The notes beneath the pieces were generated by a model, which did not search any database, had not been told where the DNA came from, and was given only the letters and a program-made list of their open reading frames with translations. Position numbers and translations under genes: made by a program. A DNA stretch of 61,348 nucleotides, counting the filler. It is 8 parts of 8 records of this genome, joined end to end, with 100 filler letters (N's around TTAATTAATTAA, not from the genome) between each part and the next. Parts side by side here need not be neighbours in the genome. Positions count along the whole stretch, not along the records: positions 36,888 to 48,320 come from SRR2962707_3958; 7 more parts are not named here. One strand, given 5' to 3'. Shown piece after piece: positions 42,705-48,477 of the stretch. Every line of letters starts with the position of its first letter. Positions within the stretch are counted from its first letter, which is position 1.

Positions 42705-43277
42705 ATGACACACGATTTGAGGCCCCTTTCGGGACCGCCCTTCGACGCCAAGACTCAAGCGATACTGGACAAGCACTACCCGCAGCGGGACGGCGAGGTG
42801 TTAAGCCTGTTCCGGGTTTTCGCCCGCAGTCCCCGTCTGTTACGCAAACTCGGCGCGGCGGGATTGCTGGACGAGGACAGCCCCTTGCCATTACGGGACA
42901 GAGAAATCGTCATTCTGCGCACCACGGCGCATCACGGGTGCGAGTACGAATGGGGAGTGCACGCCAGGGTGTTCGCCAAAGCCGCGGGGCTGGATGACGC
43001 GCAGTTGGTTGCCACTCGGCACGGGACCGCGGAAGCGCCGTGCTGGACCGAACAGGAACAAGCCTTGATCCGGGTGGTTGATGAACTGCATGGCGAAGGC
43101 AACTTGAGTGAGGAGGCGCACTCGCTGTTCGTCCGGCATTGGGAAACCGAACAGCAGTTGGAAGTGCTTGCTTTGTGCGGGTTCTATTCCACTGTCAGTT
43201 TTATCGCCAACACCGCGCGGCTGGCGCCGGAGCCCTGGGCGGCGCGCTTTCCCAGGGAGGGCGCGACCGGTTCCTGA
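42705..43277 (+). CDS. Carboxymuconolactone decarboxylase/AhpD-like protein
   Basis: REIVILRT...CEYEWGVH motif; GGAG RBS before ATG 42705. Confidence 0.85.
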   Translation: MTHDLRPLSGPPFDAKTQAILDKHYPQRDGEVLSLFRVFARSPRLLRKLGAAGLLDEDSPLPLRDREIVILRTTAHHGCEYEWGVHARVFAKAAGLDDAQLVATRHGTAEAPCWTEQEQALIRVVDELHGEGNLSEEAHSLFVRHWETEQQLEVLALCGFYSTVSFIANTARLAPEPWAARFPREGATGS

Positions 43278-43369
43278 CAGGCCCTAGTCCATTTGGACTA
43301 TGGGAGTGTGGTCTGAATCTCTTTAGCCTTGCTGGAAACAGGGCAGCCGCTGAACCAGGGAATACGAAA

Positions 43370-44458
43370 ATGAAAACGTGGATAGTGACCGCGTTACGCG
43401 TCGGCGCCCTGATGTCCGTTCTTGTAACGGGAAAAGCGGCGGCTTGGGCGGTGCTGTTCGACGAAGAGCTGCCTCCGTCCGCAGGTGACCCGCGGGAGCC
43501 GTCTGCGGCCGTCACGGCAAAGGACGATGCGAAAGAACAACGGCCGCCGCCAGTGCAAAGAGAACGGTACCTGAAAGCGGCCCGCGCCGGCGACACCGAA
43601 GCCCGCTTCCGCCTGGGGAATGCCTATCTGGAAGAGAGCGGTGACCTTATGGAAGCGGTTTCCTGGCTGGACTGCGCCGCCCTGGTTGGCCATCAGGGTG
43701 CCCGGGAAATGCTGCGGGACCTGGGTTTGGCGTTGACCCCGGATAGCGAATGCCGCCATCCAGTGGAGCCGGCCATCCTGGCCCATGATGCCAACGCTGA
43801 CGCGGACCAGCTTTATCAAACCGGTAACGCCCATTACTTTGGCAATGGTGTTCCTCAGGACCACGGCATAGCGTTGGAATGGATGAGGGCGGCGGCGGGG
43901 CACGGTCATGCTCTGGCGATACACACGCTTGGCATCATGTACATGAACGGCGAAGGCGTTGAGCCCGATGCGCACACCGCGTTGACGTTCACCCGTCGCG
44001 CGGCGGAGCTGGGGGTCACCGATGCCCTCAACAATCTGGCCTGGATGTACGAGAAAGGAAAAGGCGTGACCGCGGATCAGACCGTGGCCAACCGCTACTA
44101 TCTGGATGCGGCGCGGGCAGGTGTCGGCAGCAGCCAGGCCCGCTATGGTTACATCCTCGAAACCGGTATCGGCATGGAACCTGACCCGCGGCAGGCAGCG
44201 TACTGGTATCGGCTTGCCGCGGCGCAGGGAGTCTCCGAGGCACAGGTGCGTCTGGGCGCGCTGTATTATGAAGGCACGGGTGTGGATGAGGATCTTGATG
44301 AAGCCTGTTTCTGGTTTGCGGTTGCTGCTGAATTGGGCGATCAACAGGGCATGAACAATAAGGAAATCGCCTGTGCGATGCTGTCTGCGGCACGGCGCAA
44401 TGAGGTGGAGCCGAGAGTGCGGCAATGGCTCACGCAATACCGGGGCGAAACGCAATGA
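43370..44458 (+). CDS. Secreted Sel1-repeat protein
   Basis: Signal peptide; repeated A..LG..Y..G.GV..D...A..W...AA..G units. Confidence 0.88.
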   Translation: MKTWIVTALRVGALMSVLVTGKAAAWAVLFDEELPPSAGDPREPSAAVTAKDDAKEQRPPPVQRERYLKAARAGDTEARFRLGNAYLEESGDLMEAVSWLDCAALVGHQGAREMLRDLGLALTPDSECRHPVEPAILAHDANADADQLYQTGNAHYFGNGVPQDHGIALEWMRAAAGHGHALAIHTLGIMYMNGEGVEPDAHTALTFTRRAAELGVTDALNNLAWMYEKGKGVTADQTVANRYYLDAARAGVGSSQARYGYILETGIGMEPDPRQAAYWYRLAAAQGVSEAQVRLGALYYEGTGVDEDLDEACFWFAVAAELGDQQGMNNKEIACAMLSAARRNEVEPRVRQWLTQYRGETQ

Positions 44459-45630
44459 TCATGGTATGGCGAGCATGCGCGTTTGCATTGCTGATTCTGT
44501 CTCTGGGCGGCACCGCGGCAGCCGATGAATCGACAACGCTGATCTCGTTGAGACCGGAACAAATCATCATCAAACCTGGCCGTAAAGAGCCGGTTGATCG
44601 CCCCCGCTATTATTATGATTTGTATCAGGCGGACATTCCGGAAACGTTGCCGGTGGAGCCGGTCTCCGAGGATGACCGTTATCGAGCCGCGCTCTTCCAT
44701 CTTTATCGTTCCAGTGGACAGAATATTCAGGCGGTGGCTGATGCCCGGACCACTTTGGTGACTCTGGCCGAGGCCGGGCATGCCGCCGCTCAGGTCTGGT
44801 ATGGCGTGCAGTGGGAGTTTGGAAGGTTGCCCCAGGGCCGCGATACGCGAAAGGCGGTGGGCTGGTATCAGCGCGCCGCGGATCAAGAATACGCCGACGG
44901 CTTGCTACTGCTTGGCATGCATCGCCATACCGCCGTCTCCGACGGTGAGGTATCTGAATCCATAAGGCTGTGGCGCCGGGCCGCCGTCGCCGGTGATCGG
45001 CCATCATCGGCCACCGCCGCCTACGCGGTGGGCTGGAGCTATTTCCATGGTGAAAACGCGCCGCGCAATCACGAGCGGGCGCTGCATTGGTGGCGCCGTG
45101 GCCTGGAATTGGGGCACGTACCGTCACGCTACGCCGTGGCGTATATGACGGAATTCGGATTGGCTTCGAAGGCCAGCTTGCGGGCTGCGCTGCCCCTTTA
45201 TCAGCAGGCCGCGGAGGAGGGGGATGGGCGAGCCGCGGTGCGCCTGGCACAAATTTATGAGCGGGGCACGCCTTCCCGGGGGCGGGCCGAACAGGCGTTT
45301 CGCTACTGGATACAGGCGATGGGGTCGGGCCGGCCGGAAGCCCGTTTCCGGATTGCGCGCTATTTCGAGACCGACACGTTACCGGTCACGGAGATCGACG
45401 GCGAGCCGATTCCCGGGATTGCGTTGGCGCAGGTGATCGAGACCTATCAGGCGCTGGCGCGTGATGGTTTCGCGCCGGCTTTGTATCTGCTTGGGACCTT
45501 CTGCGAGCAGGGCCGTTATACAGCCAAGGACCCGGAGCTTGCCGGCCAATGGTATGAACTGGCTCTGGCTTTCGGTAGCGAACAGGCGGTGCTCAAATTG
45601 GGGAAGCCTTTACCACCGGCCTTTCGTTGA
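44455..45630 (+). CDS. Secreted Sel1-repeat protein
   Basis: ATGA overlap with the upstream gene; signal peptide ending AAA; multiple degenerate Sel1 repeats. Confidence 0.85.
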   Translation: MIMVWRACAFALLILSLGGTAAADESTTLISLRPEQIIIKPGRKEPVDRPRYYYDLYQADIPETLPVEPVSEDDRYRAALFHLYRSSGQNIQAVADARTTLVTLAEAGHAAAQVWYGVQWEFGRLPQGRDTRKAVGWYQRAADQEYADGLLLLGMHRHTAVSDGEVSESIRLWRRAAVAGDRPSSATAAYAVGWSYFHGENAPRNHERALHWWRRGLELGHVPSRYAVAYMTEFGLASKASLRAALPLYQQAAEEGDGRAAVRLAQIYERGTPSRGRAEQAFRYWIQAMGSGRPEARFRIARYFETDTLPVTEIDGEPIPGIALAQVIETYQALARDGFAPALYLLGTFCEQGRYTAKDPELAGQWYELALAFGSEQAVLKLGKPLPPAFR

Positions 45631-45642
45631 AGGGAGCCCGCG

Positions 45643-46521
45643 TCAGATGCGAGTAGCGGCGAATCGCTCCCGCAGCCATTTGGCCGCCGGGCCGCTGGGC
45701 CGCTGCTTGTGCCAGACCAATTCCACCGCCACCGGCAAATCAAAGTCATCGAACTGCAGTTCCGGAATCACCAGATCCGCCGCCACCGGCGATGCCTCGA
45801 TCACGTGACTGGAGACGAAGGCCCAACCGATTCCCTGTCGCACCAACTGCAGGATCACCCAGTGGCTTTCCACCCACCACACTTCCGGCGCTACTCGTAA
45901 ACGTTGTTTCTCGGGGCCGTCGCTGTGCGCCGCCACCAGAATCTGGCGATGGCGTTTCAGGTCTTCCCAATCCACCCGTACCTTTGCCAGGGGATGGTGT
46001 TTGCCACAGACCATTTTGATCGGCACCCAGCCGAGGGTTTGGAATCCCAGCTCGGTGGGCAGAATTTCCTGCCGCCACATGACACCAAGGTCGGCCTTGC
46101 CGGTCAATACCAGGCGGCTGACGTCCTCCATCATGGGAAACAGCAACTCCAGCTCCACGTGGGGGAAGTGTTCGGCGAATTCGGCGAACACTTCGGCCAT
46201 GATCCGTTCCGGATAAATTTCGTCGATCGCCACTACCAGACGCTGTTCCACATGAGCCTCGAAACTGCGCGCCACGCCGATCAAATGTTCACGCCGGTCG
46301 AGGATTACCCTGGCCTCCAGTAACAGGCGTTCCCCGGCCGGGGTCAGTGTGGGGCTGCGTCCGGCACGGCTGAACAATGCCAGCCCAAGATCCTCCTCCA
46401 GGTTGGATATCTGGGTGCTGACGGCGGATTGGGCCTTGTGCAAACGCCGGGCGGCGGCGGAGAACGAGCCCGTCTCGGCGGCAATGACGAAGGCCTGTAG
46501 TTGGTCCAGGGAGACAGTCAT
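45643..46521 (-). CDS. LysR-family regulator (AceR-like position)
   Basis: GSFSAAARRLHKAQSAVS HTH; divergent from a PACE transporter. Confidence 0.92.
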   Translation of the reverse strand: MTVSLDQLQAFVIAAETGSFSAAARRLHKAQSAVSTQISNLEEDLGLALFSRAGRSPTLTPAGERLLLEARVILDRREHLIGVARSFEAHVEQRLVVAIDEIYPERIMAEVFAEFAEHFPHVELELLFPMMEDVSRLVLTGKADLGVMWRQEILPTELGFQTLGWVPIKMVCGKHHPLAKVRVDWEDLKRHRQILVAAHSDGPEKQRLRVAPEVWWVESHWVILQLVRQGIGWAFVSSHVIEASPVAADLVIPELQFDDFDLPVAVELVWHKQRPSGPAAKWLRERFAATRI

Positions 46522-46523
46522 CT

Positions 46524-46538
46524 ATCTGTTTTTAAGAT
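46524..46538. promoter_or_regulatory. LysR-type T-N11-A box ATC-N9-GAT
   Basis: ATCTGTTTTTAAGAT immediately upstream of the lysR start codon. Confidence 0.55.
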
Positions 46539-46610
46539 GGTATCTAACTTTATTTCCGCAATATTGAAGATAGATTAGGCGCCAGTCAAACCAGTGAGGA
46601 GTGTTTCATC

Positions 46611-47048
46611 ATGGCATTGCGTACGACTCAGGACCGGGTCCGTCACGCGGTATTGTTCGAGCTGATCGGCCTGGCAATCATGGTCCCGGTGGGCGCTTAC
46701 CTGTTTCAGTTGCCAGTCGGCCATATGGGCGTGCTGGGCGTGGTGGGCGCCACTATCGCCACGGTCTGGAACTTTGTCTTCAATCTGGGGTTTGATCACG
46801 CCATGTTGCGTTGGTTGGGCCATACCAGGAAAACCCTGCGTATGCGGGTAGGGCATGCAGTGCTGTTCGAAGGCGGCCTGCTGGTAATGCTGCTGCCGAT
46901 GGTGGCCTGGTATTTGGGGATCGGTTTGCTGCAGGCCCTGCTGATGGACCTCGCCATGGTGTTGTTCTATCTGTTCTATGCCTTCAGCTTCAACTGGGCT
47001 TATGACCGGGTGTTTCCGGTGTCACCGATGGCGAAAGCGGCGGTATGA
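46611..47048 (+). CDS. PACE-family efflux transporter (AceI-like)
   Basis: RVRHAVLFE, WNFVFNLGFD, RVGHAVLFEGG, FNWAYD. Confidence 0.92.
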   Translation: MALRTTQDRVRHAVLFELIGLAIMVPVGAYLFQLPVGHMGVLGVVGATIATVWNFVFNLGFDHAMLRWLGHTRKTLRMRVGHAVLFEGGLLVMLLPMVAWYLGIGLLQALLMDLAMVLFYLFYAFSFNWAYDRVFPVSPMAKAAV

Positions 47049-47059
47049 CGATGAGAGGC

Positions 47060-47086
47060 GGCCATGCATCATACTGGTGCATGGTC
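47060..47086 (+). terminator. Hairpin downstream of the PACE gene
   Basis: GGCCATGCATC-ATACT-GGTGCATGGTC, 11-bp stem with GU pairs; weak U-tract. Confidence 0.4.
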
Positions 47087-47140
47087 GGTTTCCGTATTAA
47101 CATGGGTACCGTTAAATCCTGAACGAACGGATCCTCCCCC

Positions 47141-47287
47141 ATGAACGTGATCGCACGCCTTGTCGCTGTAGTTGCCCGCTTCCCCGGCGACCGCGTACGC
47201 GATCATGGCATGTCCCCACCGGTTTCCTCCGTCGTCACCGCGGTTCGGACATCCGTTGCCGTAGTACGCCAAGTCGTTCGCGGCTGA
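47141..47287 (+). CDS. Putative valine-rich leader peptide (48 aa, 14 Val)
   Basis: MNVIARLVAVVARFPGDRVRDHGMSPPVSSVVTAVRTSVAVVRQVVRG*; followed by a structured spacer and a DMT gene. Confidence 0.55.
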   Translation: MNVIARLVAVVARFPGDRVRDHGMSPPVSSVVTAVRTSVAVVRQVVRG

Positions 47288-47381
47288 TACCGCTGATTTA
47301 CCTCCCTGACCTGCTTTAACGGCTTCGCCGCCCGGTTTCCGCGGCGTCAGGTCGGGACCGTTCGTATTCGATGGATGAGCT

Positions 47382-48251
47382 TTGATGAAAACGGAAAATA
47401 CCTTTTGGGCGGCCCAGGGCGCCATGGCCACGTTCGTGTTGCTGTGGGGCAGTGCCGCCATCGTCACCCGTTGGGGTTTGGACCACGGCTCGGTTCTTGC
47501 CCTGTTGATTCTGCGCTTTGCTCTCGCGCTTGGCGCCCTGCTGTTGATTCGTGGCGGTCGTCTGCTGCCTCCGCGAGGACAGCGTTTGCCCGTGGCTGGC
47601 GTCGGCCTGCTGCTGATCGGTTTTTACACTCTGTGTTACTTCCTGGCTTTGGAGCATGAAGTCACGCCGGGGCTCCTGGCCACGGTGCTGGGGGCACAAC
47701 CGATTCTCACCCTGGTGCTCACCGAGCGGCGCTTCTCGCCGTGGCGTCTGGCGGGACTGCTGCTGGCTTTGCTTGGGCTGACGCTGGTGGTCTACCAGAG
47801 TCTGGTTCTGGCCAGGTTGTCCTGGACCGGTATGGCGTTTGCTCTGGGCGCTTTGCTTTGTGTCACCGTCGGCGCGTTATGGCAGAAGCGTATCGCGTTG
47901 CCGCCGAGCGAGGTGCTGCCATTGCAATACGCGGTGACGCTGCTGTTGTGCGCTTTGCTGATCCCGTTCCAGCCTTTCCATTGGCAATGGAGTGTGGGGT
48001 TCCTGGTGCCGGTGGTATGGATGGGGCTGGGGGTGTCGGTGGCGGCACAGCTGCTGCTCTATCGGATGATCCGCTCCGGTAATCTGGTCAATGTCACCAG
48101 CCTGTTCTATCTGGTTCCGGTGGTGACGGTACTGCTGGATTACCTGGTATTCGGCAATGCTCTGTCGGCAATGTCGCTGGCCGGCATGATCGCGATCCTG
48201 GCCGGGTTGGCGGTGGTGCATGGCCAGCGGGAGCGGGTGCCCGCCGAGTAG
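47382..48251 (+). CDS. DMT/EamA-family transporter (possible amino-acid exporter)
   Basis: FVLLWGS, LRF, QPILT, VTSLFYLVP; two EamA repeats. Start may be ATG 47385. Confidence 0.9.
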   Translation: MMKTENTFWAAQGAMATFVLLWGSAAIVTRWGLDHGSVLALLILRFALALGALLLIRGGRLLPPRGQRLPVAGVGLLLIGFYTLCYFLALEHEVTPGLLATVLGAQPILTLVLTERRFSPWRLAGLLLALLGLTLVVYQSLVLARLSWTGMAFALGALLCVTVGALWQKRIALPPSEVLPLQYAVTLLLCALLIPFQPFHWQWSVGFLVPVVWMGLGVSVAAQLLLYRMIRSGNLVNVTSLFYLVPVVTVLLDYLVFGNALSAMSLAGMIAILAGLAVVHGQRERVPAE

Positions 48252-48477
48252 AGAATGGGAGGTTCGGTCGAGGACGCGGATCCGTGCGCCGGCCTTCCGG
48301 GATCGCCGTAAATACATCCCNNNNNNNNNNNNNNNNNNNNNNNNNNNNNNNNNNNNNNNNNNNNTTAATTAATTAANNNNNNNNNNNNNNNNNNNNNNNN
48401 NNNNNNNNNNNNNNNNNNNNGAGCAACAGGAACGGCGAAGGCGAGAGTGCGCTGCCAATGCCTCCATCGCCGTTTTC

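Follow-up and report, generated by a model that had tools for sequence, protein, structure and literature searches.

A stretch of DNA of 61,348 nucleotides (nt), referred to here as the window, was found to carry a gene for an EamA/DMT transporter that is preceded by a short leader open reading frame (upstream ORF, uORF) and by a group of RNA hairpins. Both lie in the gap of about 335 nt that separates the EamA gene from a PACE/AceI-type efflux gene (Table 1). The product of the EamA gene matched Pfam family PF00892 (E 4e-18) in two stretches, in line with a two-repeat transporter; no NCBIfam model reached its cut-off, and the top one, TIGR00950, scored 57 bits where 230 would have been needed. 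The start codon was set at ATG 47385 and not at TTG 47382, which the ORF finder had listed, because relatives have TTC at the latter position. The nearest genomes were those of Alloalcanivorax (A. xenomutans, A. balearicus and 'Alcanivorax xiamenensis'), with EamA identities of 97-99%.

Table 1. Positions of the leader elements, the transporter gene and the adjoining genes in the window
Feature	Position	Strand	Remarks
Leader ORF (uORF), 48 codons plus TGA	47141-47287	plus	Conserved in four relatives; aligns with 25 uORFs elsewhere
S-P-P-V-S-S codons, window version of the family core PPP-x-SS	47213-47230	plus	From the uORF alignment; SPP/PP is a candidate ribosome-pausing site
P0, small hairpin GCGG/CCGC with the uORF stop TGA (47285-47287) in its loop	47280-47293	plus	Weakest helix
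P1, long-range stem; 5′ arm about 47304-47313, 3′ arm about 47348-47357	47304-47357	plus	Compensatory changes
P2, small hairpin directly after P1; CCGT 47358-47361 with ATGG 47371-47374	47358-47379	plus	Covariation, RNAalifold
Match to covariance model R1 (uORF end, P0, P1, P2, start codon)	47273-47387	plus	53.2 bits, E 6e-14
EamA/DMT transporter gene, proposed regulated gene	47385-48251	plus	Pfam EamA match
LysR-type regulator gene	45643-46521	minus	
PACE/AceI-type efflux gene	46611-47048	plus	Divergent from the LysR gene

Leader ORFs upstream of EamA genes

A preliminary description of the window had reported a 48-codon ORF with 14 valine codons, including four VV pairs and nine codons of the GTA or GTT type. 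This was accurate in every count: the pairs were located at residues 10-11, 31-32, 41-42 and 45-46, and valine was encoded by GTA (four times), GTT (five), GTC (four) and GTG (once). Proline occurred three times in total, with a single PP. The whole stretch was present in four of 41 related genomes at 86-99% identity, and of the 70 genomes searched in the family, none besides these contained the leader. In the five-way alignment of the window and its four Alloalcanivorax relatives, start, frame and stop of the uORF were kept in all sequences, two of which carried an in-frame insertion of 3 nt, and the 43 variable columns were split 9/11/23 over codon positions 1, 2 and 3.

When 5.8 billion proteins were searched with the window peptide alone, nothing but the peptide itself was returned, and jackhmmer, started from the same peptide against translated upstream regions, found only four near-identical copies. 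Peptides of this kind are too short and of too low complexity for jackhmmer, and rule-based and RNA-model definitions of uORFs were therefore used. Orthologues of the EamA protein were detected in three metagenome-assembled genomes (MAGs) of Bordetella sp. and one Ottowia MAG (65-66% identity) and in a Pseudomonas-like genome, G464 (53%). The upstream gaps of these loci measured 340-380 nt, and each contained a similarly placed ORF with a PPP-x-SS core. A metagenome scan with the EamA alignment yielded 80 further loci at 50-71% identity and one copy of the window type. Proline-motif ORFs were defined as closed ORFs that contain PPP or two PP and terminate 60-330 nt ahead of the start codon. 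Of the 82 loci whose upstream sequence reached 150 nt or more, 66 had one on the gene strand and 16 on the opposite strand, the metagenomic loci not being independent of one another. Counted by segments, the numbers were 75 of 268 on the gene strand and 16 of 497 on the opposite strand. The loci without such an ORF were mainly those of an AT-rich group comprising the most distant orthologues. In this group (49-55% identity; loci L053, L058, L063, L066, L068-L070, L082, L092, L096 and L045), neither a proline-rich uORF nor a match to the RNA model described below was observed.

The uORFs usually had a length of 45-65 codons, and 26 of them aligned on three common motifs, i.e. an N-terminal M-x-x-x-A-R/H (MNVIAR in the window), a central (N)PPP-x-SS-V-APP (SPPVSSVVTA) and a C-terminal VAG-x-(H)PP-x-A-x-V-x-G-stop (VAVVRQVVRG-stop). 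The Ser-Ser pair was encoded by TCN TCN in most lineages and by AGT AGC in the Pseudomonas-like lineage, which places the conservation at the peptide level. Variable sites were distributed 10/11/17 over the three codon positions in seven Pseudomonas-like sequences and 6/5/10 in six sequences of another group, the third position being the most variable in both clades, as it was in the five-way alignment. The stop codon was TGA in 50 of 55 distinct spacers, and the final residue was glycine in 37 of 54 uORFs. A profile of the uORFs matched only nine members among 5.8 billion predicted proteins, indicating that gene callers mostly miss the uORF; the named members were Pseudomonas 'hypothetical proteins', and the peptide had no match in Pfam, NCBIfam or any other family. 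Promoter-like sites 35-45 nt before the uORF start were found in the Pseudomonas-like and Bordetella loci (two of the four regions scanned), with none in locus L029 and none on the plus strand in the window. As judged from these comparisons, the uORF is a real, conserved mini-gene and not a chance frame, and it is apparently translated.

The peptides differed widely in their valine content. Among 47 distinct family uORFs the valine fraction ranged from 2 to 31% with a median of 17%; the window and its close relatives showed the highest valine (29-31%) and the lowest proline (4-6%) fractions of the family. At the lower end, L042 had one valine and L030 and L064 had two each, with alanine instead. 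Valine positions of the window were occupied by alanine or isoleucine in orthologues, no run of valine codons was seen at a fixed place, and valine columns were unconserved. By comparison, PP was present in all 54 uORFs of a set chosen partly by its Pro+Val+Ala content, PPP in 44 and VV pairs in 35. Even the AT-rich locus L049 encoded five consecutive prolines, followed by VVVV and VVV runs. At 19 loci defined by the RNA model, valine made up 23% of residues in the uORF frame versus 4% and 1% in the other frames, and proline 21% versus 6% and 12%. Codon usage was also shifted relative to the EamA genes: GTT and GTA together accounted for 28% of uORF valine codons versus 15%, and G-ending codons were depleted (GTG 25% versus 55%, CCG 45% versus 57%). 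SPP is named as a stalling motif in the available part of one report (PMC12407103), and the window retains one SPP. Judged by composition and alignment, the shared hallmark of the uORF family is its proline motifs and not valine; since valine is enriched throughout the family, valine codons may nevertheless contribute.

RNA helices between the uORF and the EamA start codon

The spacers followed a common plan, in which a hairpin (P0) around the uORF stop codon is joined by a short linker to a stem (P1) with a variable GC-rich insert, followed by a hairpin (P2) and the ATG. A nested hairpin had been predicted in the window beforehand, and both of its stems were recovered: CCTGACCTG (47305-47313) pairs with CAGGTCGGG (47348-47356), and CGCCGC (47326-47331) pairs with GCGGCG (47341-47346) inside these outer arms. 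The inner hairpin (47326-47346) is the variable one enclosed by P1. P0 typically had the form GGCTG-AT(C)-CAGCC, represented in the window by GCGG-CTGATA-CCGC. The typical form of P2 was CCTGT-N8-11-GACAGG (GACAGGTGA in other loci), with the 3′ arm lying within the Shine-Dalgarno sequence AGGTGA. In the window, the 3′ arm of P2 overlaps the Shine-Dalgarno-like GGATGAG (47373-47379), and CCGTTCGTATTCGATGGATGAG matches the P2/Shine-Dalgarno segment of the family base for base.

In the five-way alignment, T to C and C to T changes in the arms of the outer hairpin preserved G-U or G-C pairs in the plus-strand RNA. A seed alignment of 20 sequences had 86% of its cells paired, compared with 31-51% when the partners were slid, and eight of the nine P1 pairs showed compensatory changes. 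The covariance model R1 gave 49 matches (E up to 0.0011; 90 sources), including the window, where the match was the sole one in 61 kb, and the Ottowia locus. All 49 were on the strand of the EamA gene and immediately 5′ of it. Across 44 loci in a model-fitted alignment, 87% of cells were paired versus 32-48% with slid partners, and 14 of 20 pairs were compensatory. The corresponding figures were 88% versus 32-48% for P1, 91% with two of five pairs compensatory for P2, and about 82% with both-sided changes in four of six pairs for P0. RNAalifold, which makes its own structure prediction, recovered P1 and P2 from the aligned loci with 10 of 11 pairs compensatory, including in P2 an exchange of C-G to U-A at a G of the Shine-Dalgarno sequence; P0 was not predicted. 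P1 and P2 were shown by this covariation among loci to be conserved helices, and their spacing was fixed.

The distance from the stop codon to P1 was 18-21 nt in 33 of 37 rows and that from P1 to the ATG was 27-36 nt, with an insert of 26-130 nt inside P1. Overall, the uORF stop was located 88-156 nt from the EamA start, mostly about 95-110 nt. In minimum-energy folds of 53 leaders, the Shine-Dalgarno region was 82% paired and 18% unpaired. The folding energy of the window leader equalled that of shuffled sequences (z +0.19 and -0.25), which is uninformative and says nothing against a structure; it is the comparison across relatives and loci, and not the single sequence, that places the ORF and hairpin of the window above chance. 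Rfam gave no relevant match up to E 10 for positions 46400-48000 of the window and none up to E 1 for 14 other leaders.

The hairpin had been described as lacking a U-tract, and a consensus scan likewise gave no terminator-like site there. The 12 nt after P1 contained 43% T, compared with 23% overall, and one terminator-like site, in L029, uses the 3′ arm of P1. P1 and the T-enriched tail may form a weak intrinsic terminator. An alternative pairing between the 3′ arm of P0 and the 3′ arm of P1 looked possible in GGCTGGAGCC loci and not in GGCCGGGGCC loci.

In an Ottowia MAG (L022, positions 2700-2958), the RNA element was present with 44.7 bits. PPP-I-SS and the end ...IALG-TGA were found in different frames at this locus; the intervening frameshift may stem from misassembly, from decay or from another cause.

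Neighbouring genes and distribution

In the window, the leader is adjoined upstream by the divergent pair of LysR-type regulator and PACE efflux genes (45643-47048; 141 bits with NCBIfam PACE_transport), an arrangement like that of AceR and AceI. A perfect 6-bp inverted repeat, CATGCA-N9-TGCATG, was observed at 47063-47083 between the PACE stop codon and the uORF. The repeat was intact in two of the related genomes (G001 and G009) and had one mismatch in two others (G007 and G006); possible roles are those of an operator or of a weak terminator for the PACE gene. Two genes for Sel1-repeat proteins were present upstream of the LysR gene (43139-45630), of which 44425-45630 had a Pfam match and the frame at 43139-44458 was similar by eye only.

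Contigs from RNA sequencing (RNA-seq) runs X1-X3 extended unbroken from 46300 or 46557 to 48242, covering the PACE gene, the leader and EamA. No transcript is proved by these contigs, which would nevertheless agree with transcription in this genus reading through from the PACE gene. In run X5, a contig boundary was seen at 47280/47293, adjoining the uORF stop. Contigs of four runs diverged from the window at 48242, just short of the EamA stop codon, and the window contains a run of N at about 48330-48375 followed by different-looking sequence. The divergence after 48242 reflects either a strain difference or two pieces joined in the window.

The genes flanking the unit varied from locus to locus and included those for sigma-54, OYE reductase, integrase, LysR, MFS and IS66 among others, some of them integrases or transposases. 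The unit of uORF and EamA gene stands alone, and its neighbours are not conserved. As the flanks differ between loci, no functional hint was gained from gene neighbourhood. Two proline-related neighbours, a gene upstream in L030 (252-854) with an aminoacyl-tRNA editing domain of the YbaK/ProX type and an FKBP prolyl isomerase gene downstream in L049 (2464-3234), were single cases and were treated as coincidences. The distribution was patchy: among 400 genomes sampled from the class, two had an EamA orthologue, and one of 151 had the RNA element.

Possible modes of control

The uORF, presumably translated and prone to stalling, and the P0/P1/P2 fold probably constitute a cis-acting leader that sets EamA expression via RNA structure, Rho or both. 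The preliminary description had proposed ribosome-coupled control of the transporter, either Rho-dependent or translational, in response to valine. The first part, as distinct from a classical U-tract terminator, remains the most plausible class of mechanism for a conserved leader ORF combined with conserved RNA structure; valine sensing was not supported, as discussed below. EamA expression would be set by the speed and reach of ribosomes along the uORF, with slow points at PP/PPP (SPP in the window) and possibly at termination on Gly-UGA.

Two routes are considered the most likely. In a polarity route, a ribosome lagging at the proline motifs would uncouple from RNA polymerase, the C-rich, G-poor RNA of the 3′ half of the uORF and of the first 45 nt or so after the stop would be exposed to Rho, and transcription would stop short of EamA. 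In a coupling route, P1 would loop out the variable insert and bring the uORF stop near P2, and ribosomes completing the uORF would open P2 and permit EamA translation. As P1 would place the stop beside P2 at any insert size, the fixed distance between stop and P1 would be explained. By both routes, smooth translation of the proline and valine codons would turn the transporter on, and such a positive dependence would be appropriate for an exporter produced under an ample supply of amino acids or of translation capacity. Translation of the uORF, ribosome pausing within it and this direction of control are what we infer from the features of the leader.

Base composition bears on the polarity route. 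Relative to the stop, the C/G ratio was 2.45 at -70 and 1.9-2.3 from +10 to +40, compared with 0.98 in EamA coding sequences; in the window it was 1.47 over 47200-47335 and 0.78 in EamA. RNA of this composition, together with the scarcity of G-ending proline and valine codons in the uORFs, would be compatible with a Rho loading site, in the sense of compatibility only. Polyproline stalls together with Rho utilization (rut) sites resulted in Rho-dependent loss of expression in work on coupling that depends on EF-P, as far as the available text of that study goes (PMC5021804). The combination of polyproline with rut-like, C-rich RNA is what the EamA leader has in common with that system, and it is the basis of the polarity route. 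The available text deals with ordinary E. coli genes and constructs, however, and not with a dedicated conserved leader.

Several observations weigh against the proposed leader mechanism. In minimum-energy structures, the only kind used in the folding tests, ribosome footprints were masked at nine places along the final 60 nt of the uORF. The Shine-Dalgarno region stayed 0.18-0.25 unpaired under these masks, compared with a baseline of 0.18 (n=53), and P1 was not dissolved, with 0.59-0.71 of its pairs formed compared with 0.68 (n=40). No mutually exclusive fold linking stalling to P1 or P2 was seen in the masked folds. As the masks neither freed the Shine-Dalgarno sequence nor dissolved P1, no classical switch between alternative hairpins was found. 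The spacer of about 100 nt is mostly structured and thus not ideal for Rho loading, and with its single PP the window copy may show weak pausing. Shine-Dalgarno-like sequences before the uORF starts were weak, and the starts are assumed. The selection of uORFs by Pro+Val+Ala content makes the composition figures partly circular, and the control with 19 loci defined by the RNA model includes several near-identical loci. Likewise, the alignment of 44 loci (A5) had been fitted to the structure of the model. The RNA-seq material, consisting of contigs only, cannot show transcript ends or levels and was not used as evidence. Recoding or read-through of the UGA was rejected as a further explanation: beyond the stop, the reading frames run for only a few codons (two in the window, eight in L029) before they close, and the spacing to the EamA start varies modulo 3.

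Of the alternatives, an arrest peptide that senses a ligand survived best, even if it is unlikely. Ribosomes would arrest at or near Gly-UGA with a small molecule in the exit tunnel, maybe the substrate of the transporter, and the arrested ribosome would then block Rho or remodel the leader. TnaC and SpeFL, which respond to tryptophan and ornithine, respectively, are metabolite-sensing arrest peptides that act through Rho by arrest at the stop codon. The EamA leader shares with them a conserved leader peptide, and arrest at the stop and a Rho site beside it, both established in those systems, are candidates here. Specific motifs are conserved beyond mere composition, the frequent terminal glycine and the UGA stop (the latter only suggestive) fit arrest at this position, and C-rich RNA directly follows a stop codon that is held at a fixed distance from P1. 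A self-contained unit of uORF and EamA gene would also fit a device sensing its own substrate. However, the EamA leader peptide is longer than TnaC or SpeFL and variable, and as a low-complexity peptide it tolerates many exchanges among V, A, I and S. The terminal GGC-TGA is also part of P0, so that its conservation may act at the RNA level, which counts against an arrest peptide.

A valine-sensing attenuator, in which scarcity of Val-tRNA would stall ribosomes and alter termination or translation of EamA, appears improbable; in this case the EamA protein would carry valine. The ilvGMEDA/ilvBN, trp and his leaders are leader-peptide transcription attenuators of amino-acid operons, and the ilv leader peptides are likewise rich in valine. 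They resemble the EamA leader in having a short 5′ leader ORF rich in particular amino acids, followed by RNA hairpins, and in that the progress of the ribosome is sensed. The family-wide enrichment of valine in the uORF frame, the VV pairs and longer valine runs, and the excess of GTT and GTA codons, also evident in the window, are what such an attenuator would be expected to show. Unlike those leaders, the EamA leader has no canonical U-tract in the window and no antiterminator/terminator alternative was found; its uORF comprises about 50 codons compared with 14-32, its conserved motifs are based on proline, and it precedes a transporter gene and not a biosynthetic operon. Inspection of the regions upstream of orthologous genes, which had been put forward as a check of valine sensing, revealed conserved uORFs and covarying stems but no conserved valine content: some members have only one to three valines and carry alanine, and the universal features are PP/PPP and Gly-TGA. 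Valine as the sensed quantity was therefore not borne out.

Still less probable is a mechanism of the CutF/SecM/MifM type, in which a ribosome paused at the proline-rich C-terminal part of the uORF would unfold a stem-loop hiding the Shine-Dalgarno sequence and thereby switch EamA on. The available part of one report describes for CutF a uORF with a proline-rich C-terminal part and a stem-loop masking the next gene's Shine-Dalgarno sequence, and for CruR a Rho-dependent termination across an intergenic region of 162 nt (PMC9973294). A small upstream ORF with a proline-rich C-terminal part is common to these systems, as far as described there, and to the EamA leader, in which a conserved hairpin also hides the Shine-Dalgarno sequence. 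In contrast to CutF and CruR, however, the EamA uORFs have no signal peptide and no metal-binding cysteine motif, the target is an EamA gene, and no sequence relation was detected, a Pfam search being empty. The geometry differs as well: a ribosome at the stop codon would still be about 75 nt short of P2, and the footprint masks left the Shine-Dalgarno sequence paired in the 53 leaders. The distance of about 100 nt between the stop and the hidden Shine-Dalgarno sequence makes it unlikely that stalling opens the binding site directly.

Least probable of all is that the uORF encodes a free-standing small protein, such as a partner of the transporter, with the helices as unrelated features of the mRNA: the conserved length of about 45-65 amino acids, the three conserved motifs and the few copies annotated as hypothetical proteins would suit it, but the low-complexity Pro/Val/Ala/Ser peptide belongs to no Pfam or NCBIfam family and has hardly any database matches, and the tight spacing of stop and P1, with the stop inside a hairpin, ties the end of the ORF to the RNA fold.

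Leaders with proline codons are also known from Mg2+ transporter genes of Salmonella, namely mgtL and mgtP. A further leader ORF of this kind, mgtQ, is described in the accessible portion of a report on a Salmonella Mg2+ transporter gene (PMC8092293). Proline codons in a leader ORF and an RNA structure in front of a transporter gene are features shared with the EamA leader, the RNA structures of the mgt leaders being alternative ones. The mgt leaders differ in being much shorter and unrelated in sequence and in having alternative stem-loops that share sequence with the ORF; the EamA leader showed no overlap of this kind.

Full-text searches of the literature, with subscription-only papers outside their scope, found no leader or arrest peptide described upstream of an EamA/DMT gene. 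As a principle this is known; the family, its leader of three helices in which a hairpin carries the stop codon, and the EamA target are undescribed. Beyond the cis-acting leader proposed above, it is conceivable, if doubtful, that the uORFs form a new family of nascent-peptide sensors. Such a leader might report the transporter substrate in the exit tunnel, or the capacity for proline and valine translation (Pro-tRNA, Val-tRNA and EF-P), and might license an exporter of amino acids or metabolites only at high supply, as an 'inverse attenuator' acting via Rho or P1 coupling. The window copy would then perhaps have been re-tuned from proline to valine.

Few leader peptides control transporters rather than biosynthetic operons, and each case studied is informative on ribosome-based sensing. 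The promoter, the uORF, the P0-P1-P2 fold and one EamA gene make up a compact, portable unit, which was seen in Alloalcanivorax, Pseudomonas-like, Bordetella and Ottowia genomes and in many metagenomes. The unit is held by neither Rfam nor Pfam, and the covariance model and the peptide alignment now permit its annotation. The leader also offers a natural system for the regulatory use of polyproline pausing, EF-P and Rho, and a handle on an uncharacterised EamA subfamily, as the factor that causes or relieves stalling should point to the substrate of the transporter.

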